64,000 nucleotides of DNA from a virus, in IMG/VR virus record IMGVR_UViG_3300003873_000007, positions 28,281 to 92,280 of that record, one strand, 5' to 3'. The notes beneath the pieces were generated by a model. That model was not told the DNA's origin, searched no databases, and worked only from the letters and a program-made list of their open reading frames with translations. Below, piece by piece: positions 45,020 through 62,789 of the stretch. Position 1 is the stretch's first letter. Each line of letters begins with the position of its first letter. The translations under genes were made by a program, and so were the position numbers.

Positions 45020-45746
45020 AACAAAAAGCTTTCTTAAAGGATTATCTGATGCTCATCGAGAAGACATCAAGAGAAATTTAGAGAATATAGAACCGTATCC
45101 TGGTCATGAAAATTATAGAATTTCTGAATTATCTCGAGCAGTAATGGCTGAACAAGTTTCAGAAAAAATGAAAGAGATATTTGATATTATGAAGTTAGAT
45201 TATAGAAATGATCCAAATCTTAAAGATACACCTATGCGAATATCTAGCATGTGGGTAAATGAATTAATGATAGGCAGATATCAAAATAAGCCTAGAATGG
45301 AATCTTTTCCACTACAGTTTGGAGGAGACGGAGGAATATTAATTGATGATACTCCATTAGAGCCAGGCATGATGATTACAAAAAAAGTCGATATTCGAAG
45401 TCTATGTTCTCATCATTTTATGCCATTTTTTAATAATGAAGATGGGTATGGATTAATTGCATATATGCCAACTGATAAACTTTTAGGCATTAGTAAACTT
45501 CAAAGATTAGTAAATTGGTACGGAGCTCGTCCTCAATTACAAGAACAATTAACATATCAAATCTATAAAGAAGTATGTGATACAATTGGTACAAATGATG
45601 TATTAGTTATTATGGAAAACATTGAACATACATGTGAAAGTCTTAGAGGTGTAGAATCCGTATGTGGTAGAACAAACACTGTTCAATATGGTGGAGCATT
45701 TAACGATGCGGCTTTACGTCGAGAAGTAATTCTCGGATCAAAATAA
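45000..45746 (+). CDS. folE: GTP cyclohydrolase I
   Basis: LKDTPMR, SLCSHHFMPF, GISKLQR, RPQLQEQLT, HTCESLRG. Confidence 0.95.
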   Translation: MQTEQDKTKSFLKGLSDAHREDIKRNLENIEPYPGHENYRISELSRAVMAEQVSEKMKEIFDIMKLDYRNDPNLKDTPMRISSMWVNELMIGRYQNKPRMESFPLQFGGDGGILIDDTPLEPGMMITKKVDIRSLCSHHFMPFFNNEDGYGLIAYMPTDKLLGISKLQRLVNWYGARPQLQEQLTYQIYKEVCDTIGTNDVLVIMENIEHTCESLRGVESVCGRTNTVQYGGAFNDAALRREVILGSK

Positions 45747-46351
45747 AAAATAAAATAATAGGAAACAGAATGGAAATGGAAAAAATGAAAGAACAAGTAC
45801 AAAAAATGATAGATTGGATCAATAAAGTTTTAAATATTGGTGTTTTTAATAATTTAGAAGAATCCACTACATCTGTGTCAGAGATAAAAGTTAGTAATAA
45901 AAGTACAGGTAAAGTAATGCCTGAGCCTTTAGTCGAAGAAGAAGCACAATATTGTTTAGATGAAGAAACTTTTGTTCCTAACATATCAGGAAAATATTCA
46001 GAACAAGAAGTTGATACAATTAAATTATTTTTAAAAAATAAAAATTTTAAAGATATATCATTAGAAGAATTTATAGGATTAGCATTTAAATTGAATCGTA
46101 AAGTATCTTCAGTTAAAACTAAAGCTAAAAAATTATATGATTCAAAGTAATATAATGAAAAAAATTATATGTTACGAAATAAAATATGGAGTGTTGACAA
46201 ATAATCGTTTTGAAATATCAGAAGAAGATTTTAAATTAGATATTAAAAAATGTGCTAAGACACATATTAAAAATGGTTATAAAATTTATTTAGATACGGC
46301 GACTTTTAATGATTTAAAAGTCTTTTAGCATCTAAATAAAAAAGGAGTTAT

Positions 46352-46804
46352 ATGGAAATTGATGAAAAACATGAATGGTTTCTTCCTGACCATTTTATAG
46401 AGAAAACTGATAATGATGAAGTATTACTATACGCCGATACAGATAGTTGTGTAGGTTCGACTAAAATTAGTATTAATAATAAACACATTTCAATTGAAGA
46501 TTTTTATGAGCAGTCAGATGGGCGAGTTGAAAAGAAATCAAAAGAAAATTTTGTAAAGTATTTAAACTCAAAATATATAACACCATCATTGAGTAAAAAA
46601 TTAGATATTGAAAATAACGATGTTATATATATTATGAAACATTTAGTAAAAAAAAGGATGTTTAAAATAATAGTTGATAGAAATGAAGTTATTATAACAG
46701 AAGATCATTCGATTATGGTTTTACGAAATTCCAAACTGATTAAAATTAAACCAGATAAGGTACAAAAGAATGATAGAATTATTACAATTTGTGAGCCGTC
46801 CTAA
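46352..46804 (+). CDS. polB: DNA polymerase B motif-C N-extein (31 aa, ...YADTD) fused to split-intein N-fragment
   Basis: YADTD followed by SCVGSTKI (intein block A) and ITEDHSI (block B TxxH); stops after 119 intein residues; AAGGAG RBS. Confidence 0.88.
   Translation: MEIDEKHEWFLPDHFIEKTDNDEVLLYADTDSCVGSTKISINNKHISIEDFYEQSDGRVEKKSKENFVKYLNSKYITPSLSKKLDIENNDVIYIMKHLVKKRMFKIIVDRNEVIITEDHSIMVLRNSKLIKIKPDKVQKNDRIITICEPS
46445..46801 (+). mobile_element. Split intein, N-fragment (Ser1)
   Basis: Blocks A and B present, no blocks F/G. Confidence 0.85.
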
Positions 46805-47891
46805 ATGCATTGAATGTAATTTATCTGAAATATCTGATAAAGTATGGACAAAATATAGTTTAAATCGAAAAAATATTGGCTCAGATGGATGTTGGTTAAA
46901 ACCAAAACTTATAAATGGTCATCCATATTATAGAAAAAGATGCTTGAATTGTTTTAAAAAATTATATAAAAGAGATGCTAAAAAATTAAATACATTAAGT
47001 TATGATTTTATATATCTATTTGATATATCAGAAGATGTTTTAAAAAAAGCAAATGCGAATCGAGCAGTAACTCTTAAAAATATGGTTAAGAAATATGGTG
47101 AAATTGAAGGAACCTTAAAGTTTGAAACGTATTGTAAAAAACAAGCACATAGCAATAGTCTAGAATTTTTTTTAAATAAAGGATATACAAAACAAGATTT
47201 TATAGATTATAATAAAAATCGAGCGGTAACCCTTGAAAATATGATCAAAAGATATGGTGAAATTGAAGGAACTTTAAAATTTGAAAATTATTGTGAGAGA
47301 CAACGATACACAAAATCATTAGATTATTATGAAGATAAGTTTGGAAAAACCTCAGCAAAACTTGAATTTGATAAAACTAATAAATTAAAAGCAATAACTC
47401 TTAAAAACATGATTATGAAATATGGGAAAATTGAAGGAACCTTAAAGTTCAACAATTTTGCTAAAAAATCACAATCTGGATATTCTGAGATGGCTTCTAA
47501 TGTTTTCATATTTTTGTTTGAAAAAATAATTCACGACTTTCCAAATTTAAAGGATAGTATTCAATTTCAACCATTAACACAAGAATATTTTTTATCAAAT
47601 ACTGATGGAATATATTTTTACGATTTTACAATTAAGAATCTTAAAATTATCATAGAATTTAATGGGGATGTGTATCATGCAAATCCATTAATTTATAAAA
47701 AATCAGATAAACCAATACATTGGTTTTATCCAGATTTAACTGCGAATGAAATCTGGAATAAAGACAAACTAAAAAAAGATCGAGCTATAAATAACGGCTT
47801 TACATTTTTTACAATTTGGGAGTCAGATTTAAAGCAAACTCAATTTTTAGAAAATTTTTATTTAACATTAAAAAGGAAATTGGTATGTTAG
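46770..47891 (+). CDS. Free-standing Vsr-like homing endonuclease between the split-intein halves
   Basis: Three repeats of (R/K)A(V/I)TL(K/E)NM.K.YG.IEGTLKF; FYDF...IIIEFNGDVYHANP...IWESD; lies in a different frame from both intein halves. Confidence 0.8.
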   Translation: MIELLQFVSRPKCIECNLSEISDKVWTKYSLNRKNIGSDGCWLKPKLINGHPYYRKRCLNCFKKLYKRDAKKLNTLSYDFIYLFDISEDVLKKANANRAVTLKNMVKKYGEIEGTLKFETYCKKQAHSNSLEFFLNKGYTKQDFIDYNKNRAVTLENMIKRYGEIEGTLKFENYCERQRYTKSLDYYEDKFGKTSAKLEFDKTNKLKAITLKNMIMKYGKIEGTLKFNNFAKKSQSGYSEMASNVFIFLFEKIIHDFPNLKDSIQFQPLTQEYFLSNTDGIYFYDFTIKNLKIIIEFNGDVYHANPLIYKKSDKPIHWFYPDLTANEIWNKDKLKKDRAINNGFTFFTIWESDLKQTQFLENFYLTLKRKLVC

Positions 47892-48007
47892 TTAAATATC
47901 ATGATGATTACACAGTTGAAGATTTAGGTATTTGTGAGGAATGGGTTTATGATATCGAGGTTAAGAATAATCATAATTTCTTTGCAAATTCAATTCTTAT
48001 TCATAAT
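47885..48007 (+). mobile_element. Split intein, C-fragment
   Basis: Blocks F/G ending His-Asn, with +1 Ser. Confidence 0.88.
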
Positions 48008-48889
48008 AGTGCTTATTTACTTTATGATTTACCATTTAATAAATATGAAGATATTCACCAACTCGTCAATTATGTTCAATCTATTGCTCGAGAATTAGGG
48101 GAAATATATAATAATGCATTAGAATATTATTTATGTAATTTTGCTGGATTAAATCCTGAATATAACACAATGGATTTTAAATCTGAGGTTATTGCATATA
48201 AAGGTTTCTTTAACACTAAAAAGTTTTACTCACTTGCTAAATGTTGGGACGAAGGAGTATTCTTTGAAGAGAAGCCTAAATTAAAAACAACAGGTGGACA
48301 AATAAAAAAATCTGATGTTACACAGATCACCAAAAAGTTATTAACTGAAATTTATCATATTTTAGTTACAGATATAAATCAAAACGATATTATAAAAATG
48401 TATAGAATGATTTTTATTGGTTTAAAAAATAAATACAAATTACAAATATCAGAAGATATTGAAAATATGGAATTTACAAGTTTTAGTGTTCCAAAAAAAT
48501 GGGGAAGTACAGAAAAAAGTATTCCTCCGTTTGTAACAGGAGCTAAATTATACAATGCTATAATAGGGGATACTTTTCGTCCATCCGATGCATTTATTGT
48601 TGTAAAAGTTATTATTGATGTTGAGAAATTATTAGATTTTTATATACAAAATAATGTTAATGATGATAAATTTACATTACAGCGGACAGAAGTACAAGAA
48701 TTGAAAAATAAAATAAATGTGATTAGTATACCTCCAATTTTAAGTGATGAAGAAAAAACAAAGTTGTTGGATGTAATGAAAAAATTAAATATTAGATTAA
48801 ATTTAACAGAAATAATTGAATATAATATCGATTTAAAAATCGATCCGTTTGAAAAATTATTTGATGAAGAGACAAGGCTAAGTGCATGA
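47885..48889 (+). CDS. polB: Split-intein C-fragment (41 aa) fused to DNA polymerase B C-terminal palm/thumb
   Basis: AAGGA RBS before ATG 47885; VYDIEV.NNHNFFANSILIHN/SAYL; then MDFKSE, TKKFY and KTTGGQIKKSD PolB-type motifs. Confidence 0.88.
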   Translation: MLVKYHDDYTVEDLGICEEWVYDIEVKNNHNFFANSILIHNSAYLLYDLPFNKYEDIHQLVNYVQSIARELGEIYNNALEYYLCNFAGLNPEYNTMDFKSEVIAYKGFFNTKKFYSLAKCWDEGVFFEEKPKLKTTGGQIKKSDVTQITKKLLTEIYHILVTDINQNDIIKMYRMIFIGLKNKYKLQISEDIENMEFTSFSVPKKWGSTEKSIPPFVTGAKLYNAIIGDTFRPSDAFIVVKVIIDVEKLLDFYIQNNVNDDKFTLQRTEVQELKNKINVISIPPILSDEEKTKLLDVMKKLNIRLNLTEIIEYNIDLKIDPFEKLFDEETRLSA

Positions 48890-49950
48890 TACAACATAAT
48901 AGTTTAAATCCGATCAACGTTGATAACATTCAAGAAATCGTTAAACATTTAAAAGATAATAATTACAAATTTTATCAATTTTATAATATTGAAATCGAAG
49001 CGGATGAATATAGTTTTATTCAATATATGTTGAAATATAAAGATTCACCAAGAAGCAAGGTCTTAAATAAAACATATTATGATATTGAAACTTTTGTTAA
49101 CGAAGATGGTGATTTTACTGATCCGGAAAAGGTTGATAGACCAGTAAATAGTATTGCTCTTTATAATAATATCTCAAATACAGCTTATGTTATAGCATAT
49201 GTTACAGAATGCAATATTACAGATCCTGATGAAATTTCATCAGGGATTCATAAACTGTTTACAGAAAAAGTTGCAGAAAATGAAACTTATAACATCCCTG
49301 ACATTACTTTAGATATTCGAATTTTATCTGATGAAAAAGAATTGATAAAAGAATTTTGGTCTTTAATGCAAGAACAAAATACTTTAGCTTTAATTGGATT
49401 TAATAGTAATACATTTGATGATGTTTTTATGTTTAATAGGACTGCTAAATTATTTGGAAAAGATGCTCGAGATAATATGGTATCAGAATTCGGTATTGTT
49501 GAACAATATGGTCAGCAATTCGAAATTCCTGATTATTTATTAGTAGATTTATTAAAATTGTATAAACCTGTTGGGTCAGGAGGGGGAGGATTAGGAAAGT
49601 CACTTCCTGACTTTAAATTAAATACTGTTGCTTATGAAGAATTAGGTATAACAAAATTAGATTTACCTGGCGGGTTTAGATGGAATTATTTAAATGATAT
49701 AGTAGGATATTTAACATATAATATATTTGATACATTATTAACATTTAAAATGGATGAAAAATTAATGTTTATGGAATTAATGTTTGACTTATCAAAATAT
49801 AATAATGCTAGTATGGGAGCGACAATTAATGGTCGATCAATATTATATTTATATAGGAATGATCTAATGTATTGCTCACAAGATAAAATTATTAGATCAA
49901 AAAAATTTTCGAGAGAAGTGCTTTTTGAACCAAAAATAAAAGATATTTAA
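48886..49950 (+). CDS. polB: DNA polymerase B 3'-5' exonuclease domain as a separate gene
   Basis: ExoI YYDIET, ExoII GFNSNTFDD, KLNTVAYEELG, ExoIII YNIFD. Confidence 0.88.
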   Translation: MIQHNSLNPINVDNIQEIVKHLKDNNYKFYQFYNIEIEADEYSFIQYMLKYKDSPRSKVLNKTYYDIETFVNEDGDFTDPEKVDRPVNSIALYNNISNTAYVIAYVTECNITDPDEISSGIHKLFTEKVAENETYNIPDITLDIRILSDEKELIKEFWSLMQEQNTLALIGFNSNTFDDVFMFNRTAKLFGKDARDNMVSEFGIVEQYGQQFEIPDYLLVDLLKLYKPVGSGGGGLGKSLPDFKLNTVAYEELGITKLDLPGGFRWNYLNDIVGYLTYNIFDTLLTFKMDEKLMFMELMFDLSKYNNASMGATINGRSILYLYRNDLMYCSQDKIIRSKKFSREVLFEPKIKDI

Positions 49951-50401
49951 AGGAGAAAATGTTAATGACAAACAGTGAAGTGCTACAGAAAATAAATGAT
50001 TTAAAATTAGAAATAGATGAACAAACACTACTATGTAAAAATATAGTAAAGGTAGAAAATGTTACATCAAAAGATATACAAAACTTATTAGATTCAACTT
50101 TGGAAAAAATTGATACTTTGAAAAAGTATCAACAAATAATTTTAAATAGAAATTATTTAGAATTCATAGAATATAATTCTGAAAATATAAATATCCAAAC
50201 TTTAATTAAAAGAAAAGAAAAATTATTATTAAAGAAGAAATTTGAAACAATTTTAATTAATTCATATAATGACACAGAAGGACTTGTGAAAATATCAATA
50301 GATGCTTTTCAACACGTTCAAGAATATAAAAAAGAATTATCAAAAATTCATAGTATATTAAATATTTTTAATAATACACAATTCAAATTAGAGGAATATA
50401 A

Positions 50402-51709
50402 ATGAAAAAAATAACAGAACTTAGACTCGAACCACTTGATAGAAAACCACAATTAGTACAACATTTTGTATCATTAGAAGGGGAGGGTGGCACAATCGGA
50501 AGAAGTGCATTGTATATCAGAACAGGTGAATGCTCATTACGTTGTAATTTTTGTTTCGGCTCACCTAAAGGTAAAAGAGAACCTAAAATTACAACATTAA
50601 ATCAAAAGCGTAAAAAATTAACAAAAATTGAAGTCGGTGATAAATTATTAACATATAATGATGACCAAGAACTGGTTGAAACAGAAGTGTATAATGTAGT
50701 TGATAGAGAAGTTGATAAATATTTAAAAATTAAAATTGACGATAAATTTTATTATGTTACACATGAACATCCATTTTTTACAACAAACGGTTTAAAAAGA
50801 GCAGATGAATTAAAAATTGGTGATGATATTATACACGGAAATGAGGAAGAATATAATATTCTTCGTATGAAAATAAATAATTCAATACATAATGAATCTA
50901 ATCAAAAACGATTAAATAAAACTGTTCAAAAAATTGAAGAAATTTCTGATAAATTAAAAGTTTATAATATATCATGTGCACCATATAATACATATCTGAT
51001 TGATGATATGTGGGTACATAATTGTGACACCGCTTATAGTGTAGAAGGGAAAGATGAACATAATATTGTTGATATGACAAGTGAAGAATATGTTAATTTA
51101 TTAAGAAAAGAATATTCTAGATCGCAACGCCAAAACATTTCAAATTTATCAATTACTGGCGGCGAACCTCTTTTAAATTTAAATTATATGAGAAAACTTA
51201 TACAATCAACATTAAAAGCATTCCCAAAAATTACTCAAATTATTTTTGAAACAAATGGTACAATGTTAAGTAAAGAACAAAACGCTTTTAAATTGATAGA
51301 ACAACTCGGATGTTTTCATCCACATCTAAAATTTATGTTGAGTATTTCTCCTAAACTTTCAGGAAAAATTAGCTACAGTAATATTAAAAATGATGAAGAA
51401 ATTTTAGATATATACAAAAATGTTCTTAATAATTACAAAGGTATATTAGATGCACATTTTGATATTCAATTAAAATTTGTACATAGTAATGTTCTAAGTA
51501 AATGGAATGAGACTTTAATTGATTATGCTTTATCTATGATTGACCCGTTACATAAAAATCAAATATTAATTATGCCGTTTACACCAGTTGACCCTTTAGG
51601 TAGAGATAAAGATTCTTGGAATTCATCAAAAGATGATGCTGCTAGATATGCAATGGATAATTATTTTAGATATAGTCCTAGAGTTCATGTTGATAGACGA
51701 TTAGATTAA
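50402..51709 (+). CDS. queE: 7-carboxy-7-deazaguanine synthase (radical SAM) containing a mini-intein
   Basis: SLEGEG...G, CSLRCNF[intein]CDT, ITGGEP, FETNGT, ISPKL, SPRVH. Confidence 0.9.
   Translation: MKKITELRLEPLDRKPQLVQHFVSLEGEGGTIGRSALYIRTGECSLRCNFCFGSPKGKREPKITTLNQKRKKLTKIEVGDKLLTYNDDQELVETEVYNVVDREVDKYLKIKIDDKFYYVTHEHPFFTTNGLKRADELKIGDDIIHGNEEEYNILRMKINNSIHNESNQKRLNKTVQKIEEISDKLKVYNISCAPYNTYLIDDMWVHNCDTAYSVEGKDEHNIVDMTSEEYVNLLRKEYSRSQRQNISNLSITGGEPLLNLNYMRKLIQSTLKAFPKITQIIFETNGTMLSKEQNAFKLIEQLGCFHPHLKFMLSISPKLSGKISYSNIKNDEEILDIYKNVLNNYKGILDAHFDIQLKFVHSNVLSKWNETLIDYALSMIDPLHKNQILIMPFTPVDPLGRDKDSWNSSKDDAARYAMDNYFRYSPRVHVDRRLD
50552..51022 (+). mobile_element. 157-aa mini-intein inside the CxxxCxxC motif of QueE
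   Basis: Starts Cys (CFG), IEVGD, VTHEHPF, LKIGD, VYNI, ends WVHN followed by Cys; no endonuclease domain. Confidence 0.9.
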
Positions 51710-53463
51710 GGATTTATTAAATGATAAATCCGTATGATAACAGTATACAATCGGACTATTACATAAAACCATCAATTGATTATTACGATAATGAATTAAA
51801 ACGTCGCGACACATTTAGAATTGATACTTATAATATTTTGATATATGAAGTTTCAAAAGACTCAATGCATTATAATCACAATTTACATTTGCTAACTCTT
51901 ACTAATATGGATATACGAATGTATACTCTTTTACAGTTACCAGATACTCGATTATTTTTAGACGTACTTGAAAATAGTGATATTAAATCATCAACCAGAT
52001 TTAAAATTACAAATGTTCACTTAATTAATGAGGAAGATGGTTTATACAATATTCAATTATCAATGATTAGTGATTATGTTTTTGATATGTTAAATTCAAA
52101 TAAATATGCTAGTATATCCATATCAGATGTAAATGTTCAACTGACATCATTTGAACTGATTTCTAAAATTATTCAACAAATGGTATCCGATCATGGAACA
52201 AAAGTTGATGCAAACTATACAAATGCTGGAGAATTAAAGAATTTATTATCATATGTTAGGATCCCTGATAATTTAAATGATTTTGAGATTTTTAATTATT
52301 TATTTGATACTTATCCTCCTTATCTTTTAGCTCCTTATCTTATCTTCGATGACTTTAATATTAGACAAAATAGTAAAAGTGACTTTAGTATAATCCTTTT
52401 AAATATTTGTGATATTAATGGGAGCTATCCTTTAAAAAATATTAAAAGCATACCTGGTACAGTAACTGGTTATGTTGAACATTTAGACAGTAAACCGTTG
52501 CTAAATTATAATGAAGTTTTTGAAGAATTACAAGCAACTTTAATAATAAAAAATGAGAATGAGAATAAAGTATTTGAATTGAAACCTGCTCAAACATCAA
52601 GACATTCAAATAAGATTAAACACATAAACAGTTCGCTAACAATCGAATCATTTAAACAAAAAATGATTATGCGAAAAATTTTAGCGGAATATGAAGCAAG
52701 TATAGAAACATATATTTATGATGATATAAATTTATCTGATATTATATTTGGTGAAGTATACAATATAAATAATAGTTTAATTTATAATTATTTACCAGTT
52801 AGTTTCTTTTATAAATTTATAAAAAAACAAGATAATAGTTTTAAATTGGAAACAAAAATAGAATTTCTTAGACTTCCAGGGAGTCTAATAACAAAAGGAT
52901 GGTGATGGCAAAACAAAACGATGCAATCAGCAGTCTAATTAATCCTTTATATTTTAAAATGATTAAAAATGCTGTTGTAAAACATGGTAGAATTAATGTT
53001 CAAGCTCTTTCTGAAAAGTTTAATATTCTACCAGGAAATACATATTTTCGAAACTTTATAAAAGACAATGATCAAAATTATCTAGGAACCAATGGATTAA
53101 AAAGTATTTTAAATGTATGTGGATATACTATTCGATTAGTTCCTGTTAAAAAAAGTGATATTGATACGATGACATATATTGAAAAGTTGACAGCTGAATC
53201 GTTTACTGATATTAGTGAAAAAATTAGTAAACAAGCAGAGATGTTAAAACGACCTCCAAAAAAAGAAAAGAAAAATAGTCCAAGAATAATAGCAAACGCT
53301 AAATTAATTAATGATAGTATAATGGGAATTTCATCTGATGATATTAACGATATATTTGATGATGATAACGATGATTTAATTATAGGAACATTTGATGATT
53401 TGGATGATTTACCGGACATTGAAATCGATCCTATAAAATTAGCGGAACATCTAAAAGAAAACG

Positions 53464-53506
53464 ATCTATAAAGATATTTTATATTAATATAGAAATAATA
53501 TATAAC
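53464..53506 (+). promoter_or_regulatory. Putative phage promoter (copy 3)
   Basis: ATCTATAAAGAT-N14-TAGAAATAATATATAAC upstream of 53519. Confidence 0.55.
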
Positions 53507-53518
53507 TAAAGGATATAA

Positions 53519-55063
53519 ATGAAATATATTAGCGTAACTTCTCCAGGAACTGATATGGCAAAACCTATATTTAATTATTTTAATAAATATTTAATTTCGT
53601 TAGGTGAACCAATCACGAATAATTCATGGGATGCATTAAAATTGATGAAACATTTAGATAAAATTCTTGAAGAGAAACCTGAAGATTATAAATTATATAT
53701 TGATTCGGGTGGGTTTCAAATTATAGTAGGATATGTTGAATCTGATAGAATTTATAGTTACATAAATGTTTATCATACATTGTTAAAAAAATATAAAGAT
53801 AAAATTGAAACAATTTTTGGGTTAGATGTTTATTCTGATAGTTTTATGAAAACTTTTAAAACGCTTCCTCCAATTTATAGAGAATCTGAGCATTCACTTG
53901 GTAAGATTATTGCAAAACCGTCACGAAATGTTCCAATTTTTCCGGATACATATATTAAAGAAGATATGTTAGATTTTTATGATGCAAATAAATATAGCAT
54001 GTTAAAATCAATAGAACTAATAAAAGAATTTCCAGAGATTGCAAATAAACAAATTTTTATTTTACAGTCATCAAATATCATAACATTTAACATATGGAAA
54101 GATCTTTTTGATGAATTAGAAGTTTATAAATATTATAAAAGATGGTCAATTGGTGGATTGGTTGGATTAAAAAAATCAACAAATGCTAGATTTAGCCACG
54201 CTGTTCCAGCAACTCTTTGGTTACTTACCCAACAGAGATTACATAATTTTGAAATTGATCAAATCCACTGGCTAGGTCAAAGTTCAAGACTCAGTTTTTT
54301 AAGCATGGCGTTATTTGAAAAAATATATGGAATTAACATGACTAGTGATAGTTCTCAGTTAGTTCGATTTGCTCCTCTCGAAGCAAAATTACCATACATA
54401 ATTAAACAAGATGATGATTTTGAATTAATTTCAAGTAAATCTGAAGTAGTTAAAATGTTTAATAACCATTCAATTAAGGATGCAAAATGTTTTATAAAAG
54501 TAACCAGTGCTAGCAATATTGTTGAGATGAAGAGTCCACAACAATTAAAAATTATTGAAAATAATCTAAAAGATGGAAAGGTTTTTTATTTTGATCAAAT
54601 AATATATGATCAAATATTAAATTCAAAAGAAGAGATGTATTTTCAATTAACAACTGAACAGTATTTTAAATTAACTGGTAAATTAGATAATCAAACATTT
54701 ATCGAATTTCAATCTCAAAATTTATCAGCTGACTTAGAATTTGGAAATTTTATTATTAACAAGATTATGAAACTAGTAAAATATAAAATTAATGATGAAG
54801 AAGTTTCATTTGAAGATTTTAAAAGTTCCTCTGATCAAAAAAAATTTACAATCTCAACGGGGATTGATGCAATTGATACAGTTGAAGATATAAAATGTTT
54901 ACATCCGATTATGAATAGAGGCAGAACATCGTTAGAGTTATTTAACAATATTAAATATTTTAAACAATTTGCTCCTATCATTAAAGAAAAAGATATACAA
55001 AAAGCTAATCATATCATGGATACAATTGTTTTAAATTATAATAAATATTTTAAAAGTAAATAA
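53519..55063 (+). CDS. dpdA: TGT-fold transglycosylase, DpdA-like (7-deazaguanine insertion)
   Basis: YIDSGGFQ, FILQ, SIGGLVG, IHWLG, TSDSS motifs, in the context of que genes. Confidence 0.7.
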   Translation: MKYISVTSPGTDMAKPIFNYFNKYLISLGEPITNNSWDALKLMKHLDKILEEKPEDYKLYIDSGGFQIIVGYVESDRIYSYINVYHTLLKKYKDKIETIFGLDVYSDSFMKTFKTLPPIYRESEHSLGKIIAKPSRNVPIFPDTYIKEDMLDFYDANKYSMLKSIELIKEFPEIANKQIFILQSSNIITFNIWKDLFDELEVYKYYKRWSIGGLVGLKKSTNARFSHAVPATLWLLTQQRLHNFEIDQIHWLGQSSRLSFLSMALFEKIYGINMTSDSSQLVRFAPLEAKLPYIIKQDDDFELISSKSEVVKMFNNHSIKDAKCFIKVTSASNIVEMKSPQQLKIIENNLKDGKVFYFDQIIYDQILNSKEEMYFQLTTEQYFKLTGKLDNQTFIEFQSQNLSADLEFGNFIINKIMKLVKYKINDEEVSFEDFKSSSDQKKFTISTGIDAIDTVEDIKCLHPIMNRGRTSLELFNNIKYFKQFAPIIKEKDIQKANHIMDTIVLNYNKYFKSK

Positions 55064-55066
55064 TCT

Positions 55067-55151
55067 ACGTCAATGATATGTGACGTTAAACTATCCGGAT
55101 ATAAGGTGTGATATAAATCATTAACAATATTTAAACGTTGCAACGTTTAAA
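55067..55151 (+). promoter_or_regulatory. ssb leader: possible H-type pseudoknot plus a 22-bp palindrome
   Basis: ACGTCA/TGACGT stem whose loop GATA can pair with TATC at 55092-55095; TTTAAACGTTGCAACGTTTAAA at 55130-55151 just before the RBS. Confidence 0.45.
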
Positions 55152-55170
55152 ATTTTAAAGGAAAAATATA

Positions 55171-56076
55171 ATGGCAAAAAATTTAACAATCAACAACGCA
55201 ATCATCCAGTACGCTTTTTTAGAAAGAGTAAACCCAATTTCAAACAAGTATAGCTTTGAGTGTTTAATTCCACAAGATCATCCACAAATTCAAGAAGTTA
55301 TGGCAGCGTGTTCTGCAGAATGGGCAACTGTTGGCGCAGGTCAACCAGAAACATCTGCTCAATCAATTGGATACAATTGGACTCTACCAAATGATGTAAA
55401 ACATATTCATGCTGATGTTGCTCCTATGCTTAATCCAAATTTACAATATTTACGTTTTAGAGGTGTACAAGAAGCTAATGTTGCACCAGAAAAAAATACT
55501 AAAATTTATGCAAATATGTTAGCTGAAGATGGAGTAACTTTAGTATCTGCTGAGGTTCCTAATCGTTCAATTATTGGTGATGGTACAATTGCAAATGTAA
55601 ATGTAAATGCTTTTGGTTATCAAGCATCTGGTCAAAAAGGAGTGAAATTCTACGGGCAATGGCTTCAAATTGTAGATTTAAAAGAATCTAAGTATGCTGG
55701 AGCGGGCGTTCCACCAGCACCTGCTGCTAATGGTTACGTAGCTCCAGCTGAACTATTCGCAGCTCCTGTTAATGCTGCTCCTGTGGTACCTGTTAATGCC
55801 GCTCCAGTGACTACACCTGTAGCACCTGTTAATGCTGCTCCTACTGCACCTGTGACTACACCTGTAGTACCGGTTAATGCTGCTCCTACCGCTCCTGTTA
55901 ATACTGCACCTGTAGCACCTGTAGCACCTGTAGCACCGGTTAATGCTGCTCCTACTGCACCTGTAGCACCTGTTAATGCTGCTCCTACTGCTCCTACTGC
56001 TCCTACTGCACCTGTAGCACCTGTAGCACCTGTAGCACCTGTAGCACCTGTAGCACCTGTAGCACCTACTGCATAA
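55171..56076 (+). CDS. ssb: Single-stranded DNA-binding protein (T7 gp2.5/DUF2815-like) with long Ala-Pro-Val-Thr tail
   Basis: [27 protein letters not shown]....KGVKFY...LQIVDL; ~110-aa low-complexity tail. Confidence 0.65.
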
Positions 56077-56081
56077 TCAAG

Positions 56082-56119
56082 ATAAGAAACTTTTAAAATT
56101 TTTAAAAAAAGTTTCTTAT
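56082..56119 (+). terminator. Hairpin after ssb
   Basis: ATAAGAAACTTTT/AAAAGTTTCTTAT inverted repeat. Confidence 0.5.
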
Positions 56120-56128
56120 TTAAAAAAC

Positions 56129-56977
56129 GGATATGATTATTCAAAAGTTAATTATATTAATTCAACAACAAAAGTTGAAATAATATGTCAATTACATGGC
56201 AGTTTTTGGCAGAGACCTAAAGATCATATTAATCAAAAACAAGGATGTCCTATATGTGTAGGGCATTCTTTAACAACAAAAGATTGGATTCATAGATTTA
56301 TAGAAATACATAAAGATGAATATGATTATTCAAAAGTTAATTATATTAATTCAACAACAAAAGTTGAAATAATATGTCAATTACATGGTAGTTTTTTTTC
56401 AACACCTATAAATCATTATCATAATAAATCAAAATGTTCAAAATGTTATGGTAATGATCAAGACTTTAAAAAATTATTTATACAAAAAGCGACAAAAATT
56501 CATAATTATGATTATTCAAAAGTTAATTATATTAATTCAACAACAAAAGTTGAAATAATATGTCAATCACATGGTAGTTTTTGGCAGCGACCGAAAGATC
56601 ATATTAATCAAAAAAATGGATGTCCTATTTGTAATGAAAGTTCAGGTGAAAAACAAATACGATTAATTTTAGAGTCATTGAATATCCAATATATACAAGA
56701 AAAACGATTTGATGATTGTAAACATATCAATACTTTACCATTTGATTTTTATTTACCAGATTATGATATTTGTATAGAATTTGATGGTATTCAACATTTT
56801 GAAGAAATTAGTTTTTTTAATACAAATGATAGTTTTGATAATATTCAAAAACGTGATGATATAAAAACTAAATATTGTTTAGATAACAATATTAAATTAA
56901 TTAGAATAAAATATTCTGATATAGTATTAGATAAATTAAAATTTTTGGAGAAATTCAAAATAAAGGAAAATATATGA
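56129..56977 (+). pseudogene. Homing endonuclease-like gene lacking a start codon (5'-truncated)
   Basis: Frame is open from ~56063 with three [22 protein letters not shown] repeats, in frame with 56678..56977 (FDFYLPDYDICIEFDGIQHF); no in-frame ATG. Confidence 0.7.
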
Positions 56978-57576
56978 AATGGATAATAGATAAATCATTT
57001 AGTTTTTGCTATGGTCATAGAGTACATAATCAGAGATTAAATACAAAATTTACAGAATCAGGTGATGCATGTTTAGCGTGCAGACATTTACATGGACATG
57101 AAGGACTAGTAAAAGTATTTTTAGAAGAATCTGATGAAGGTTCTAATATAAAAGATACTGGAATGGTCACAGATTTTAAACATTTAGGTTGGTTTAAAAA
57201 CTTTCTTGATGATGCATTAGATCATAAATTTATTATGGATATTAAAGACCCACTATTTAAAGAAGAATTTAATTATTGTTTAACACATAATGATATTTTA
57301 TCAAATGTTGTTAAATTGAAAGAAGGTTTTTGGGTTCCAGACCTTACACAAATTCGAGAATTTTTAGATTTAAAAGGTCTATCAGAAAACGAATCAAATG
57401 CAATATTTGAAAAGTATGAAGGTGCTATTTTCGTAGACTTTGTTCCTACCTCCGAAAATCTTAGTGCTTGGTTACTTTCAGTTGTCCAAGAAAAAATGAA
57501 AGATCTTCCAAACGTCAGAGTTAAAGCTGTTGAATACTGGGAAACTCCTAAGAGTCATTGTAGAGTAGAATCGTGA
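56974..57576 (+). CDS. queD: 6-carboxy-5,6,7,8-tetrahydropterin synthase
   Basis: FCYGHR, CRHLHGH, DF, LDHKF, PTSENL, WETPKS. Confidence 0.92.
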   Translation: MKWIIDKSFSFCYGHRVHNQRLNTKFTESGDACLACRHLHGHEGLVKVFLEESDEGSNIKDTGMVTDFKHLGWFKNFLDDALDHKFIMDIKDPLFKEEFNYCLTHNDILSNVVKLKEGFWVPDLTQIREFLDLKGLSENESNAIFEKYEGAIFVDFVPTSENLSAWLLSVVQEKMKDLPNVRVKAVEYWETPKSHCRVES

Positions 57577-57825
57577 TACATAAAGGATTTAAAAGAGATA
57601 TATCGATAGGTGATCAACAATTTAGATTTCTTGTAAATGATCAAACTTATATTGTTGTTATAACTAAAAAAGGATATAATTTAATTATATTTGAAGAATC
57701 TGATATATTACATGAGTATAAAAAAATGAACTTAGATAAATTGAATACTTTATTACCTAAAGATATGCAGATTACCAAAGATCATATAATTTATATATTA
57801 ACAGCAGATAAAGATATATAATTCG

Positions 57826-57857
57826 AAAAGTAATTGCGTTTAAACGCAATTACTTTT
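57826..57857. terminator. Perfect 32-bp palindrome, probable intrinsic terminator
   Basis: AAAAGTAATTGCGTTTAAACGCAATTACTTTT right after the stop of 57573..57821, ending in a T-tract. Confidence 0.7.
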
Positions 57858-58532
57858 TCTTGTCGATGATTTCATTGATCAAGGAAATATGAAGCTAATT
57901 TCTATATTAAAAGGATATATAATGTTAGATTGTTTATCAAATGAATACATACATACCATGTTAATGTCTTTATATGAAGATAGTTATAGTGTACCTGAAA
58001 TAGAACCAGGTAAATTTAAATTTGAGAAATCGTTTTATAATGAATTTACAGATTTTAATAATGAATATTATAATTATTTTTTAGGACAATTACATATATT
58101 GTATGATTTAAACGAAGATTGTGTAGATAAAGAATATCGAAAATTATTAGAAGATGCTCATGAATTTTCAATATTAGAAAAAATGTAAAGGAATAAAATG
58201 AAGAGAAAGTTTATTTTAAAATTTGATATAAAAAATGGTAACATAAGATGTGATATGTATCAAGCGGAAAGTATTCGAATACAAGGTCGAGCAGAAACAA
58301 TACTACTTGATGATATCACAAAAGGTGCAGTTCATCATTCATTAAATTATTTATTAATGAAACTAGATGATGAATTTGATATTGGATTTAAAAAAAATTC
58401 TATAAATAATATCAAAACATGGATTCATATAAATATTTTTAAAGTTTATATTAAACACGATATGCCTAATATGTTAAAAGATGGCATTAAGAAGTTATTA
58501 AATAAAAACACAATAATAGTTGAGGATTAAAT

Positions 58533-59003
58533 ATGCAATTAAATATGCAAATAAATAATACAGCGGATAAAAATAAAGAATATCAAAATACAAATATATG
58601 TTTTAGAACAGTGCTAAAAAATACGGGTCCAAACATAAGAGGTTATGTATATACACCGTCATTATTAAAGTCAATTGAATCTCAATTAGAAAATAAATCA
58701 ATACTAGCGGAATACAATATACCTGATGTAAAAAAAGCTACAATTATTGATTTAAATAATGTTTGTGCAAGAATATCTGGAGTCACATATGATGATACAA
58801 ATGAACAACTAATTGGTGAGATAACAGTACTCAATAATGTTAAAGGAGAATTGTTAAAAGATCATATTTCGAATGAATTTCCTATTAGTTTTGGAGTACG
58901 AGGACTTATAAAAACAAGTAGTCCAACAGAAATAAAAGAAATTAATATTTTAACATTTGATGTTATAACTGAACCTGAAAATATATGGCCGAAACATGAA
59001 TAA
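58533..59003 (+). CDS. Prohead protease (T4 gp21-like) homolog, probably catalytically inactive
   Basis: N.RG.VY, LAEYNIP (cf. LGELNHP), ID...V...I, G.LLK, FGVRG (cf. VSSRG), TFDVITEP. Confidence 0.6.
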   Translation: MQLNMQINNTADKNKEYQNTNICFRTVLKNTGPNIRGYVYTPSLLKSIESQLENKSILAEYNIPDVKKATIIDLNNVCARISGVTYDDTNEQLIGEITVLNNVKGELLKDHISNEFPISFGVRGLIKTSSPTEIKEINILTFDVITEPENIWPKHE

Positions 59004-59083
59004 TGTAGAAATCTTATATATAATAATTAGTGCATATGTTATTTTTAAAAGTTATTATATCTATAAATTAAAATGAGAATAAA

Positions 59084-60340
59084 ATGGGAATTGAATATAA
59101 ACAAAATGACATAAAAAGATTAGCTGCCCATTTGAAAACATTAGGGGCTTATGTTCAGGCACCTAAGCCTCAATTAATTGGATTAAGTGACTATCAAGTA
59201 GTTGGGAGCCAAGATGCTAAATCACTGTATCCAACTATTATGGTATTATTAAATATTGGATATGATACGTTAAGAGGTCGATTATATGATTATGACATAG
59301 TTGGTAATTTATATAATATGCTATTAAAAGTTTTTGAAATAAAAAAAGAAAGAGATGATACTGTAGAAATTGCAACTAATAACTTTAAAGGAGCTTTAAG
59401 AAATTTAGCAAAAGATTATACCAATCGTGAGAAATTAAAAGAATCTAAAAAAGAATTCATTGAATTTACAACTGATTTTTATGGCGAATGTTTTAGAAAA
59501 ATTGTAAATTATAACGGTTCATTTGAAGAAATTTTAACTCCACATAATGATGAAACTTATTATTTATTAAAAAGTGCATTGTATCCTTTATTCGAAGCAT
59601 TCACTTGGATTAGTCCTAGAAATAAAGGTTATAGTACAATCATTATTGATCATGTTTTTTATAACTCAACTTTTGATGAAAAATATAAAGATAAAAAATT
59701 TATATTTTTTGAAAATATAAATTCAAGTAAGACGCAAGTAAAAATATATAATTTAGAAGAATTTCATACAAATGTTAGTTCAAAATATATTCTTAATCCA
59801 TACGGAACAGTTTTTGACAAACATGATGATAATAAGAGTTTTGAAGTAGATTTAATTCTTGGAGGAATGTCTGATAGAGGATATGTAAAAAATCAAATGT
59901 TAATTATCGAAGCGATTGTTCAAAACTGGGGAAAATTATCACAGATTCAACAAGCAGCTTTCATATTAGATCATGAAAAATTAAACCCTGTAATAGCAGA
60001 AGAAGTTATCTCTTTGGTTGGTGCCTCAGATGAGAAAACGAAAAAGTGGCAACTAAATAATTTATTAAGTATTACATTTGAAACGGTTGTAACCGAAGAA
60101 AAATTGAATGCTAGATTAGAATTAGCAGCTTCTCAAAGAAACTCAAAGAGTAATGGTATTAAAGTAACATTAAACTCTGGATACGGAATATACGGAATGG
60201 CAACTTGGAATTATGGAAATAACCTTATAGCAAATTCGATAACAACTGGAGGGAAAATATATGGTATTAAATTGTTCCAACAAGTTGCAAGTAATAAACT
60301 TAAAGTTGAACGAGCTAAAATTCAAAGTATTGCCAGTTAA
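59084..60340 (+). CDS. polB: DNA polymerase B palm motif A plus fingers motif B as a separate gene
   Basis: GAYVQAP, DAKSLYPTIM..LNI, KVTLNSGYG, ANSITTGG; ends before motif C. Confidence 0.9.
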   Translation: MGIEYKQNDIKRLAAHLKTLGAYVQAPKPQLIGLSDYQVVGSQDAKSLYPTIMVLLNIGYDTLRGRLYDYDIVGNLYNMLLKVFEIKKERDDTVEIATNNFKGALRNLAKDYTNREKLKESKKEFIEFTTDFYGECFRKIVNYNGSFEEILTPHNDETYYLLKSALYPLFEAFTWISPRNKGYSTIIIDHVFYNSTFDEKYKDKKFIFFENINSSKTQVKIYNLEEFHTNVSSKYILNPYGTVFDKHDDNKSFEVDLILGGMSDRGYVKNQMLIIEAIVQNWGKLSQIQQAAFILDHEKLNPVIAEEVISLVGASDEKTKKWQLNNLLSITFETVVTEEKLNARLELAASQRNSKSNGIKVTLNSGYGIYGMATWNYGNNLIANSITTGGKIYGIKLFQQVASNKLKVERAKIQSIAS

Positions 60341-61046
60341 TAAATATATTAAAAAAGGGAAAATTTCAAAAAAAATAAGATATATGATAGATCGCGATAA
60401 TGAACAATATCAAATAATAAAAAAATATTCAAAAAGTAATGGTATAATTTTTAAAAATTATAAATTTGCAGCAGAAGTCTATTGTTATATAAACAATATT
60501 AAATTTCCGAGATGCAAAGTTTGTAAAAATATAGTAAGATTTGTATCGACTATTTCAGGATTTAAAAAGTATTGTAGTTCAAAATGTAGAGCTAAAGACA
60601 AACATTGGCGCGTTCAACATTCTAAAATGTGGAAACTTAAAAATATCGATAAAAACAAAACAAGACAATCATACAGAAGTAATAATAAAGAATTGTTTAA
60701 AAGATATTCTAGAAAATATTTTAAAACAGAAAAAGGGTTGTTGCAAAAAAGAGTTCAAAATGCAAAAAGACGAGCTATGCGAAAAAAAGTAAAAGAAAAT
60801 TTTTCGGCTAATGATCGATTAAATGTGTTTAAAAGATTTAATTTTAAATGTTTTAATTGTTTATCTACTAAACAATTAGAGATTGATCATCATTTGGCGT
60901 TAAGTACAGGAACTCCTCTTACAAATGGCAACGCTGTATTATTGTGCAAAAAATGTAATGTTTCTAAATCGAATATTCATCCATCAAATTTTTATGATAA
61001 TAATAAATTAAAACTATTATTTATCAAATATAATATAGGTTTATAA
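60261..61046 (+). CDS. HNH homing endonuclease-like protein
   Basis: CKVC..YCSSKC finger; CFNC...LEIDH......G.....N...LCKKCN.SK; overlaps the end of the polB fragment. Confidence 0.8.
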   Translation: MVLNCSNKLQVINLKLNELKFKVLPVNKYIKKGKISKKIRYMIDRDNEQYQIIKKYSKSNGIIFKNYKFAAEVYCYINNIKFPRCKVCKNIVRFVSTISGFKKYCSSKCRAKDKHWRVQHSKMWKLKNIDKNKTRQSYRSNNKELFKRYSRKYFKTEKGLLQKRVQNAKRRAMRKKVKENFSANDRLNVFKRFNFKCFNCLSTKQLEIDHHLALSTGTPLTNGNAVLLCKKCNVSKSNIHPSNFYDNNKLKLLFIKYNIGL

Positions 61047-61532
61047 AGGAAAAATAAATGACAAAACTAGAAGAATATCAAGCAAAGAAGAATCAAATTA
61101 ATGCCGAGATTGAAAAGGTAAATAGGGATATAATCTTAACAGAGCAGTCTATAAAAACAAATGAAGATTTGTTTCTACAACAATTTGGTACAACTAATAT
61201 CGAAGAATTAAAAGTGATTGCACAACAATACCAAGACACAATAATAGCAAAAGAAGCTGAATTGCAAGTATTGGAACAATCATGAGAATTGAAACAAAAG
61301 CAGATATTGGAAATACTGTTTATTTCATGGAAAATAATAAAATACAATCCGCAGACATCCATGAAATTTCAGCAAAAGTCTTCTCAGATGGGACGAATTT
61401 ATCTAAAATTAAATATAAAACAAAATATCAAAACGGAGGAATGAATTCCGCATGGCTTCTTGAAGAGGAAGTTTTTTTAACAAAAGAATTGTTATTAGAG
61501 AATTTATTAAAGGCTTAATTAAAGGATTAATT

Positions 61533-62789
61533 TTGAAGAAAATGTTAATTTTTGTAGACACAAAGAATAATAGAAACAAGTATTATCAATTAGAATTAAT
61601 TGGAGATACTGTTCATGTTGAATATGGTCGAGTTGGAAGCTCACCACAAAAAACATCTTATTCAGGTGGTGAAAAGATGTTTAATAAAAAAATGAAAGAG
61701 AAAATTAAAAAGGGGTACACAGAAGCAAAAGTTGATTTAGAATTATTAGAAGAAACATCTGATAGAAAAGGTAATATTTTAGAGATTGCTATGGAACAGA
61801 TTAAAACAGATGATGTAAGTAAACTTTTTATCGACACCATAGTTAAGCAAAATATTCATAATATCACAAGTAATACAAAAATAAAATATGATATAAAAAC
61901 AGGTTATTTTAAAACAGCTTTAGGTATTATAACAAAAGAAGGTGTCGAAGAAGCAATTAATTTATTAGAGTTAATTGATACTTTTCAAGATAGTATGGGA
62001 AAATTATCAGATATAAAATATGATGAATTTGTAAGATTAAATGAACAATATTTTAGCATAATTCCTACAAAAATTAAAGATCTTCGTAATTACAAGAATC
62101 TTTTAATTACTAATAAAAAAGTAGAAGAACAATTAGATATATGTACATCTTTATTAAAATCTTTAGATATTATCAATTCAGAGAAATCAATAAAGAATGA
62201 TAATTCTTCAAATAAAGTAGATAAAATATTTAGTGCAAGTGTGCTACATTTAAAAGATAAAGTTGAATATAAACGATTAGAAAAGTTGTTTAATAATTCA
62301 AAGAATAATAGGCATGGTCATAATTCTTATAAAATAAGTAATATTTTTAAGGTAAGTCTTGGTAAAGAGGAAGAAAATTACAGATATGATTTAAATAATC
62401 AAATGGAATTATTTCATGGAACGAGAGTAGCTAATTTATTGAGTATTTTAAAAAGTGGTTTGTTAATGCCAAAATATAGTCCAGGTCAAAGTACTGGTTA
62501 TATGTTTGGACAAGGTTTATATTTTGCAAATCAAAGTACAAAAAGTTTAAATTATTGTGATGGTATGTACTGGAACAATTCACAAAAAAAGGATAAAATC
62601 TATATGTTTATTGCTGATGTAGCATTAGGTAATTATCAAGTACCTAGTAGAAGCAGAAGTAAAAAACCAGATAAAGGGTATGACTCATATTGGGCACAGC
62701 CAGGTAAGAGTGGAATACAGAATGATGAAATGATTGTGTTCAACAATGATCAAATTAAATTAAAATATATATTGGAGATTACAAAATGA
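61533..62789 (+). CDS. PARP-like ADP-ribosyltransferase (WGR, helical and catalytic domains; TTG start)
   Basis: NRNKYYQL...YGRVG (WGR), YFSIIP (regulatory domain), LFHGT, GYMFGQGLYFA, NDEMIVF (H-Y-E triad). Confidence 0.9.
   Translation: MKKMLIFVDTKNNRNKYYQLELIGDTVHVEYGRVGSSPQKTSYSGGEKMFNKKMKEKIKKGYTEAKVDLELLEETSDRKGNILEIAMEQIKTDDVSKLFIDTIVKQNIHNITSNTKIKYDIKTGYFKTALGIITKEGVEEAINLLELIDTFQDSMGKLSDIKYDEFVRLNEQYFSIIPTKIKDLRNYKNLLITNKKVEEQLDICTSLLKSLDIINSEKSIKNDNSSNKVDKIFSASVLHLKDKVEYKRLEKLFNNSKNNRHGHNSYKISNIFKVSLGKEEENYRYDLNNQMELFHGTRVANLLSILKSGLLMPKYSPGQSTGYMFGQGLYFANQSTKSLNYCDGMYWNNSQKKDKIYMFIADVALGNYQVPSRSRSKKPDKGYDSYWAQPGKSGIQNDEMIVFNNDQIKLKYILEITK

Follow-up and report, generated by a model that had tools for sequence, protein, structure and literature searches.

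The window and its polymerase genes

The window considered here is a 64,000-nucleotide stretch of viral DNA, bases 28281-92280 of the 92,280-base IMG/VR contig IMGVR_UViG_3300003873_000007, and our subject is a set of four open reading frames (ORFs) within it that appear to encode, between them, one family-B DNA polymerase (PolB) of the T4/RB69 gp43 type (Table 1). We refer to the pieces as 'p1', the exonuclease; 'p2', which carries motifs A and B; and 'p3', which carries motif C and the thumb and is encoded in two halves, 'p3a' and 'p3b'. Metagenomic contigs and genomes used for comparison are designated 'L' or 'G' followed by a number, and percent identities are listed in the order p1/p2/p3. 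The window has a G+C content of 25%, and the genes examined within 44-62 kb all lie on the + strand. CheckV rates the contig as ~33% complete. Related contigs of 272-281 kb have ratings of 97-100%, and the contig is therefore a piece of a ~280-kb genome, that of an uncultured jumbo phage. There is no close cultured phage: the nearest proteins are gp43 of the T4 type, at 22-28% identity, and neither the region (megablast) nor p2 (tblastn) matched any of 50,697 phage records at E <= 1e-5.

Table 1. Predicted features of the polymerase locus, in window coordinates
Feature	Coordinates	Strand	Product and evidence
p3 N-extein	46352..46444	+	31 aa ending LLYADTD, with the motif C aspartates; lines up with the N-terminal end of intein-less p3 in relatives (YADTDSAYLL)
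Split-intein N-half	46445..46804	+	119 aa: Ser1, block B TEDH, then stop; PF14890 (Intein_splicing) E = 6.9e-6
Free-standing Vsr-like (EDxHD-type) homing endonuclease gene	46770..47891	+	373 aa, in another frame, overlapping both intein halves; phrog_22677 E = 1.3e-52
Split-intein C-half	47885..48007	+	41 aa ending NSILIHN; PF14890 positions 132-155 of 155, E = 1.5e-5
p3 C-extein	48008..48889	+	293 aa: remaining palm (KKFY, KxTGG), thumb, C-terminal FEKLF tail; phrog_262 positions 582-767
p1, N-terminal domain + 3'-5' exonuclease	48886..49950	+	PF03104 E = 1.4e-8; phrog_262 positions 61-349
p2, palm motif A + fingers motif B	59084..60340	+	PF00136 (DNA_pol_B) E = 1.1e-5; phrog_262 positions 382-549
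HNH homing-endonuclease gene	60261..61046	+	Overlaps the p2 3' end by 80 nt; PF01844 E = 7.5e-6; several HNH phrogs

Domain coverage of the four ORFs

A first-pass annotation of this DNA had assigned the polymerase to four genes in scrambled order. ORF analysis, Pfam and phrog_262 (a T4-like profile of 856 positions) confirm the four genes, and the genomic order p3a-p3b-p1-(9 kb)-p2 holds as well: the stop codon of p3 overlaps the start codon of p1 as ATGA, and 9.1 kb separate p1 from p2. Each piece has its own start codon. A strong ribosome-binding site (RBS; aaaaaggag) stands upstream of the p3a ORF, 46352-46804. The p3b ORF, which runs from an ATG at 47885 to 48889 with the Ser+1 codon at 48008, begins with the C-half of an intein; it too has a clear RBS of its own, aaaggaaattggtATG, and its start overlaps the endonuclease stop. 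The two p3 ORFs are in one frame, with many stops between.

The ranges covered by p1, p2 and p3b on phrog_262 are ordered and do not overlap, and the intein-less p3 of the relative L005 spans positions 568-832. Family profiles place the pieces in the same way, again without overlap, on RB69 gp43: p1 matches residues 92-355 (E = 3e-25), p2 matches residues 393-432 (motif A) and 533-593 (motif B), and p3 matches residues 611-766. From these ranges, the break between p1 and p2 falls near where the N-terminal domain meets the palm (about RB69 residue 380), and the break between p2 and p3 falls within the palm just ahead of the motif C hairpin, at about residues 595-610.

The residues expected of an active enzyme are distributed among the pieces. 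In p1, motifs Exo I (DIE), Exo II (FNSNTFD; NSxxFD) and Exo III (YNIFD; YNxxD) are invariant in 13 relatives, and the match to PF03104 (DNA_pol_B_exo1) is above the Pfam cut-off. In p2, motif A reads DAKSLYPT and motif B reads KVTLNSGYG, and their D, L, Y and P and K, N, Y and G, respectively, are invariant in 18 relatives. Motif C of p3 takes YADTD from the N-extein and S from the C-extein, and KKxY (here KKFY) and KxTGG are invariant among relatives; the conserved C-terminal FEKLF may, by analogy with gp43, be a clamp-binding tail. Taken across the pieces, then, the exonuclease, the A/B motifs and the C/KKxY/thumb motifs of a T4/RB69 gp43-type PolB are all present. What differs is the usual state of such enzymes, with all domains on a single polypeptide; here there are four ORFs and three predicted chains.

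A phmmer search of the PDB with p2 found nothing, and its match to RB69 gp43 came solely via the family profile. Between motifs A and B lies an insertion of ~170 aa, mostly helical. In the AlphaFold2 model of p2 (predicted local distance difference test, pLDDT, 80.7) this insertion is confidently folded and the strand region of motif A (residues 22-46) is not; the strand may need those of p3 to complete the sheet. A Foldseek search of the PDB with the model returned RB69 and T4 gp43 as its best rows, both weak (E ~0.03), and no fold match for the insertion.

A split intein and its predicted endonuclease

The intein that interrupts p3 has the residues of class 1 splicing—Ser1 (SCVGS), TEDH, IHN and Ser+1—and these are conserved in L006, in L012 and in Aeromonas phage Aes508. 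Its first residue is taken to be the Ser rather than the Cys that follows, because the inteins of L006 (SLCRHS), L012 (SVVGNS) and Aes508 (SVVGDT) share Ser1, and because only Ser1 yields YADTD-SAYLL. Splicing at this point would restore the host protein: the predicted junction, YADTD-SAYLLYDLPF, is identical to the intein-less sequence of L004, and the predicted length, 31 + 293 = 324 aa, equals that of L004 p3. The PF14890 matches of both halves fall below the gathering score. The N-half is 39-50% identical to PolB inteins of Aeromonas and Campylobacter phages, and related inteins occur in PolB genes of Campylobacter, Vibrio, Pseudomonas, Prevotella and Tenacibaculum phages.

Conceivably, the intein halves do no more than hold p3a and p3b together, without splicing, in which case the enzyme would comprise four chains with the motif C hairpin on one of 150 aa. 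Ser1 inteins can be slow, and assembly without splicing via mobile-element remnants is known for the fragmented NrdA of phage Aeh1 (PMC3045599). However, Ser1, TxxH, the terminal HN and Ser+1 are intact in three lineages and in the Aes508 intein, and the N-half is under purifying selection, with a ratio of nonsynonymous to synonymous substitution rates (dN/dS) of 0.39. We regard the non-splicing arrangement as quite improbable, and take trans-splicing to be the likely route to an intact p3.

The gene between the intein halves is one of a large family, in which some proteins carry PF18741 or PF04480, or bear the name 'very-short-patch-repair (Vsr) endonuclease'. Its core, IIEFNGDVYHANP ... IWESD, includes E296, G299, H303, D332 and W350, all invariant in 21 homologues. 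The family profile matches Vsr (1vsr, 1cw0; E ~0.008), 3hrl (E = 0.002) and I-Bth0305I (3r3p; E = 0.12), weakly in each case; Pfam gave no match for the ORF, whole or in halves, and phmmer found nothing in the PDB. The gene is free-standing, lies inside an intein and is patchily present among relatives, as a homing endonuclease gene would be. The window has the intein and the full endonuclease gene; in L006 and L012 the split intein persists, with the endonuclease reduced to an N-terminal remnant of ~45 residues in a spacer of ~130 nt; and L004, L005 and L007-L010 have neither. These states represent different steps in the 'fractured gene' scheme that Dassa et al. put forward in 2009 (PMC2677866). 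Vsr-like ORFs are also found between p3 and p1 in L011 (L011:214-1275), and just upstream of a p2-p3 fusion in L112 (L112:6241-7971).

Conservation of the layout

When viral contigs were scanned, nine more turned out to carry the exonuclease gene, and nine to carry p2. p3 is upstream of p1 wherever a contig has both, and at each junction that was read, in eight contigs and in the window, they form separate ORFs. They are tightly coupled in most relatives; in three contigs, one or two ORFs, at least one of them an endonuclease gene, come between. The place of p2 varies. It lies downstream of p1 by 2.7 kb in L011, 7 kb in L005, 9 kb in the window, 18 kb in G007, 24 kb in G006 and 38 kb in G005, and in G008 it is on the opposite strand, at a distance of 72 kb. 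Relatives with this layout include L004-L012 and G005-G008, reach down to ~40% identity, and comprise at least 10 independent metagenomic contigs. Since the layout recurs in this way, it is not an effect of chance or of assembly.

G006 is rated 100% complete, G008 97% and G005 81%. Each contains exactly three phrog_262 matches, at positions 55-374, 378-554 and 569-852, and no further PolB was found with this profile; a full-length polB gene is thus lacking in the 100%- and 97%-complete genomes. Nor was any PolA or Pol III alpha domain found above cut-off in G005, G006, G008 or the window's contig. The pieces also diverge in step rather than as members of different clades. The window is 73/76/69% identical to L004/L003, 62/64/63% to L005 and 54/52/49% to G005, and p1, p2 and p3 thus co-vary as one lineage.

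Could the layout be an assembly artefact after all, or could the pieces become one chain by means of trans-splicing introns, frameshifting or readthrough? In L004, L008 and L009, p3 and p1 are in the same frame with a single stop between them, as readthrough would need. Against this, more than 10 independent contigs, drawn from different samples, share the layout, the frame of p3 relative to that of p1 varies among relatives, p2 of G008 is on the opposite strand, no intron family is detected at E <= 0.1, and a p3-p1 fusion would be out of protein order anyway. We consider such explanations extremely unlikely, and the joining of p3 to p1 by programmed frameshifting or readthrough in particular is rejected, because the relative frames vary. 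The first-pass annotation had seen no intein or intron at either of the other two breaks; in agreement, Pfam detects no intein domain in p1 or p2, and the search for intron families covered positions 44000-62000. With separate start codons, varying frames and the inverted p2 of G008 added to these negatives, covalent or RNA-level joining at the two breaks is not predicted.

A proposed three-chain polymerase

The reading that we favor, with a probability of roughly three in four, is that these genes specify a replicative T4/RB69 gp43-type PolB built from three polypeptides. p3 would be made as two halves and joined by trans-splicing of the Ser1 split intein between DTD and S, giving a protein of 324 aa; the intein gene is itself interrupted by that of the free-standing Vsr-like homing endonuclease. 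p1, comprising the N-terminal domain and the proofreading exonuclease, would be translationally coupled to p3 by the ATGA overlap, and p2, with motif A and the fingers motif B, would be made from the unlinked gene 9 kb downstream. The three would then associate non-covalently into an RB69-like enzyme, the palm sheet and two-metal active site being completed where p2 and p3 meet: p2 would supply the motif A Asp, and p3 the Asps of motif C. The first-pass annotation had proposed just such a three-polypeptide enzyme, with its catalytic aspartates on different chains, and the collinear, single coverage of the pieces supports it. Splicing, assembly of the chains and activity are all inferred from sequence.

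A looser arrangement is also imaginable, in which p2 and p3 form the polymerase core and p1 is a separate or transiently bound exonuclease, much as epsilon is with Pol III alpha. The p1/p2 break lies at a domain boundary (~RB69 residue 380), as this would predict, and the p2/p3 break lies inside the palm; in one lineage, moreover, p2 and p3 are fused and the exonuclease gene is not adjacent. But p1 is translationally coupled to p3 in most relatives, it is covalently fused to p2 in the wider family described below, and it keeps the segments of the N-terminal domain that pack against the palm in RB69. On balance, a detached proofreader seems unlikely to us.

The pieces might, alternatively, be decaying remnants of a polymerase broken up by homing endonucleases, with replication left to a host polymerase or to one that is not recognised. 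Endonuclease genes are dense around the pieces, and the window's contig is incomplete. Decay, however, is hard to reconcile with three pieces kept as intact ORFs whose catalytic residues are invariant down to ~40% identity and whose dN/dS is 0.16-0.29 per piece (rough values, with dS near saturation), or with complete relatives in which no other polymerase is recognised. We judge it very unlikely.

Several points weigh against the three-chain enzyme. The AlphaFold2 model of p1 is poor at both termini, with pLDDT < 50 at residues 1-58 and 295-354, and the p1/p2 junction is for that reason not mapped structurally. The dN/dS values suffer from the near-saturation just mentioned. And as the window's contig represents ~33% of a genome, a further polymerase is excluded only by analogy with the complete relatives. 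Prediction of the complex, using L005 p1, p3 (residues 1-230) and p2 with alignments, provided evidence neither way, for a control in which p1 was replaced scored equal to the real combination.

The wider family and its history

The proteins matched by p2 in an exhaustive HMMER search fall into three classes. The first consists of stand-alone proteins of ~410-446 aa. The second consists of p1-p2 fusions of ~620-850 aa, which end at the same p2/p3 break ('p1p2' class). The third is a single protein of 745 aa, P0007, in which p2 runs seamlessly into p3. Contigs of the p1p2 class carry a p3 gene immediately upstream of the fusion in L033, L037 and L042, and with intervening ORFs in L040 and L041; on phrog_262, the upstream gene covers positions 572-740 and the downstream gene positions 98-555. 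A single metagenome yielded P0007, on two contigs; its gene has no exonuclease gene close by and is directly preceded by one for a Vsr-like endonuclease, and a scan of viral contigs with P0007 found nothing. These natural fusions, p2 with p3 and p1 with p2, count in favor of the three-chain reading, as they suggest that p1, p2 and p3 are parts of one enzyme.

In a maximum-likelihood tree of p2, which represents one gene and is midpoint-rooted, the p1p2 class forms the outgroup (100/100). P0007 nests (99/99) among the three-piece L011 and G008, and its fusion therefore looks secondary. Because p1p2-class contigs also carry p3 upstream, the p3-first order is older than the window's clade, inherited from a wider group in which p3 stood upstream of a fused p1p2. 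The cut between p1 and p2, and the wandering of p2, are specific to the ~280-kb clade, and the abundance of homing endonuclease genes at the break points probably contributed to them. L033 departs further from the pattern. Its p3 gene, of 667 aa, has ~380 extra N-terminal residues, possibly an intein or a domain, and the motif B end of its p1p2 is apparently cut off by a 234-aa ORF (L033:5964-7967 and L033:10193-11100), which points to yet more fragmentation variants.

Neighboring genes

The HNH gene that overlaps the 3' end of p2 in the window was not found beside p2 in L003 and L005. Further homing-endonuclease genes or fragments, including a 99-aa HNH fragment, occur at 56678-56977 and 43925-45019, as neighbours of polymerase pieces or of pathway genes.

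Immediately 3' of p1 is an ORF of 148 aa (49959-50405, +) that has no Pfam or PHROG match; it occupies the same position in L004, L005, L006 and L012 (35-47% identity), and could encode a polymerase accessory protein. Genes for 7-deazaguanine synthesis are interleaved with the polymerase pieces (45000-45746, 50402-51709 and 56974-57576): FolE comes shortly before p3, QueE shortly after p1, and QueD ahead of p2. The same four relatives keep the order FolE - p3 - p1 - 148-aa ORF - QueE. QueE itself (50402-51709, +), a radical-SAM 7-carboxy-7-deazaguanine synthase, contains a mini-intein of ~156 aa (residues ~52-207) at the third Cys of CxxxCxxC, supported by Pfam HINT and Intein_splicing matches; QueE of L004 and L006 lacks it.

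Downstream of p2, the ORF at 61533-62789 (+) encodes a protein of 418 aa with WGR (E = 4.7e-10) and PARP catalytic (E = 5.7e-34) domains, and a best PDB match to PARP2 (E = 2.6e-20). It is a phage-encoded PARP-like ADP-ribosyltransferase. PHROGs labels its family, phrog_23333, 'polymerase', and we considered and rejected it as a second DNA polymerase, since it is a WGR-PARP protein.

Relation to known systems

Much of what is found at this locus has a precedent. Closest is Aeromonas phage Aes508 (JN377894), whose GenBank record annotates, in turn, gp43A, a GIY-YIG gene, gp43B-1 (with the N-intein), a VSR-like ORF, and gp43B-2 (with the C-intein). Like the window, Aes508 has a T4-type PolB with a homologous split intein (39% identity) at the same DTD/S point in motif C, a homologous free-standing VSR-like ORF between the intein halves (30% identity, E = 1e-31), and an additional, intein-free split of the polymerase. 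It differs in that its genes are collinear and adjacent, and yield two final chains, the intein-free split coming after motif A (gp43A, of 498 aa, corresponds to phrog_2062). In the window, by contrast, there are three final chains; one break precedes motif A and the other separates motif B from motif C, the order is permuted, and the middle piece is unlinked.

In the chimallivirus PhiKZ, DNAP-N (gp82) and DNAP-C (gp50) form a stable, active 1:1 complex in which the motif A and motif C aspartates are on different chains (PMC13648687). The separation of these residues that the first-pass annotation had noted is supported by the sequence and is consequently no novelty. PhiKZ resembles the window in being a jumbo phage with PolB chains from unlinked genes, the C-terminal piece having the lower gene number; it has two chains rather than three, split in a palm insertion after motif A, and no intein. 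No similarity of p2 to PhiKZ was found by tblastn against the 50,697 phage records at E <= 1e-5.

The 'fractured genes' of Dassa et al. 2009 (PMC2677866) are replication genes broken, as in the window, inside an intein by a free-standing Vsr-like endonuclease gene in another frame, which leaves the intein split. L006 and L012 correspond to a later, predicted stage of the model, at which the endonuclease is gone while the intein stays split. The published cases are single fractures in otherwise collinear genes, whereas that of the window comes on top of an older, three-way, permuted and intein-free fragmentation. Archaeal PolBs, too, can be made from two non-adjacent genes, rejoined by a split intein in Nanoarchaeum equitans and associated non-covalently in PolB3 of Methanobacteriales (PMC4104785; PMC2677866). 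These have two pieces only, belong to the cellular PolB3 lineage, and have no permuted adjacency described. Nearer to hand, the L033, L037 and L042 phages share the p2/p3 break and the p3-first order, and differ in having p1p2 as a single chain of ~650-810 aa; we found no paper that describes a p3 gene upstream of a fused p1p2. In Campylobacter phage CP21 (HE815464, 174995-179333; L115), the T4-like polymerase is annotated as about nine short 'putative DNA polymerase' coding sequences around a homologous intein, which points either to much-fragmented genes or to faulty gene calling in Firehammervirus records.

Already known, in sum, are two-chain PolBs (Aeromonas T4-like phages, PhiKZ and Methanobacteriales), split-intein PolBs (N. 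equitans and Aes508) and Vsr-like fractured genes. The first-pass annotation knew of no described case with this layout. For the split intein with its Vsr-like endonuclease that does not stand, since the combination is documented (PMC2677866, Aes508). For the rest it does: in the searchable literature we found no PolB of three final chains, no joint occurrence of both breaks, and no p3-before-p1 order with an unlinked p2. What would be new is three final chains, with two different break points, from permuted and unlinked genes.

What the fragmentation may mean

One can go further, and suppose that the fragmentation is more than tolerated homing-endonuclease damage and is itself a stably maintained state, an obligate heterotrimeric PolB whose modules are repeatedly cut, moved and re-fused across a large radiation of uncultured phages, and in which the separate expression of p2, the nucleotide-selecting piece, is put to functional use. 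We hold this idea to be doubtful, if worth stating. Under it, a separate p2 might set stoichiometry or timing, or might adapt the enzyme to 7-deazaguanine-modified DNA, the FolE, QueE and QueD genes being interleaved with the pieces.

In practical terms, automated annotation will overlook the polymerase throughout this group of phages, or give it the wrong label. For the design of split polymerases, the break points offer candidate sites, and the Ser1 split intein, with an N-extein of 31 aa, adds to the known natural split inteins. The phages also provide a natural series for the fragmentation of an enzyme under homing-endonuclease pressure, and for its re-fusion: p3 with fused p1p2, p3-p1 with distant p2, and p2p3 with distant p1. 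The same series includes p3 with intein and endonuclease, with split intein and remnant, or with neither. If the chains do assemble as we propose, then a replicative family-B polymerase tolerates two simultaneous breaks in its backbone, and the order and linkage of its genes are irrelevant to building the enzyme.

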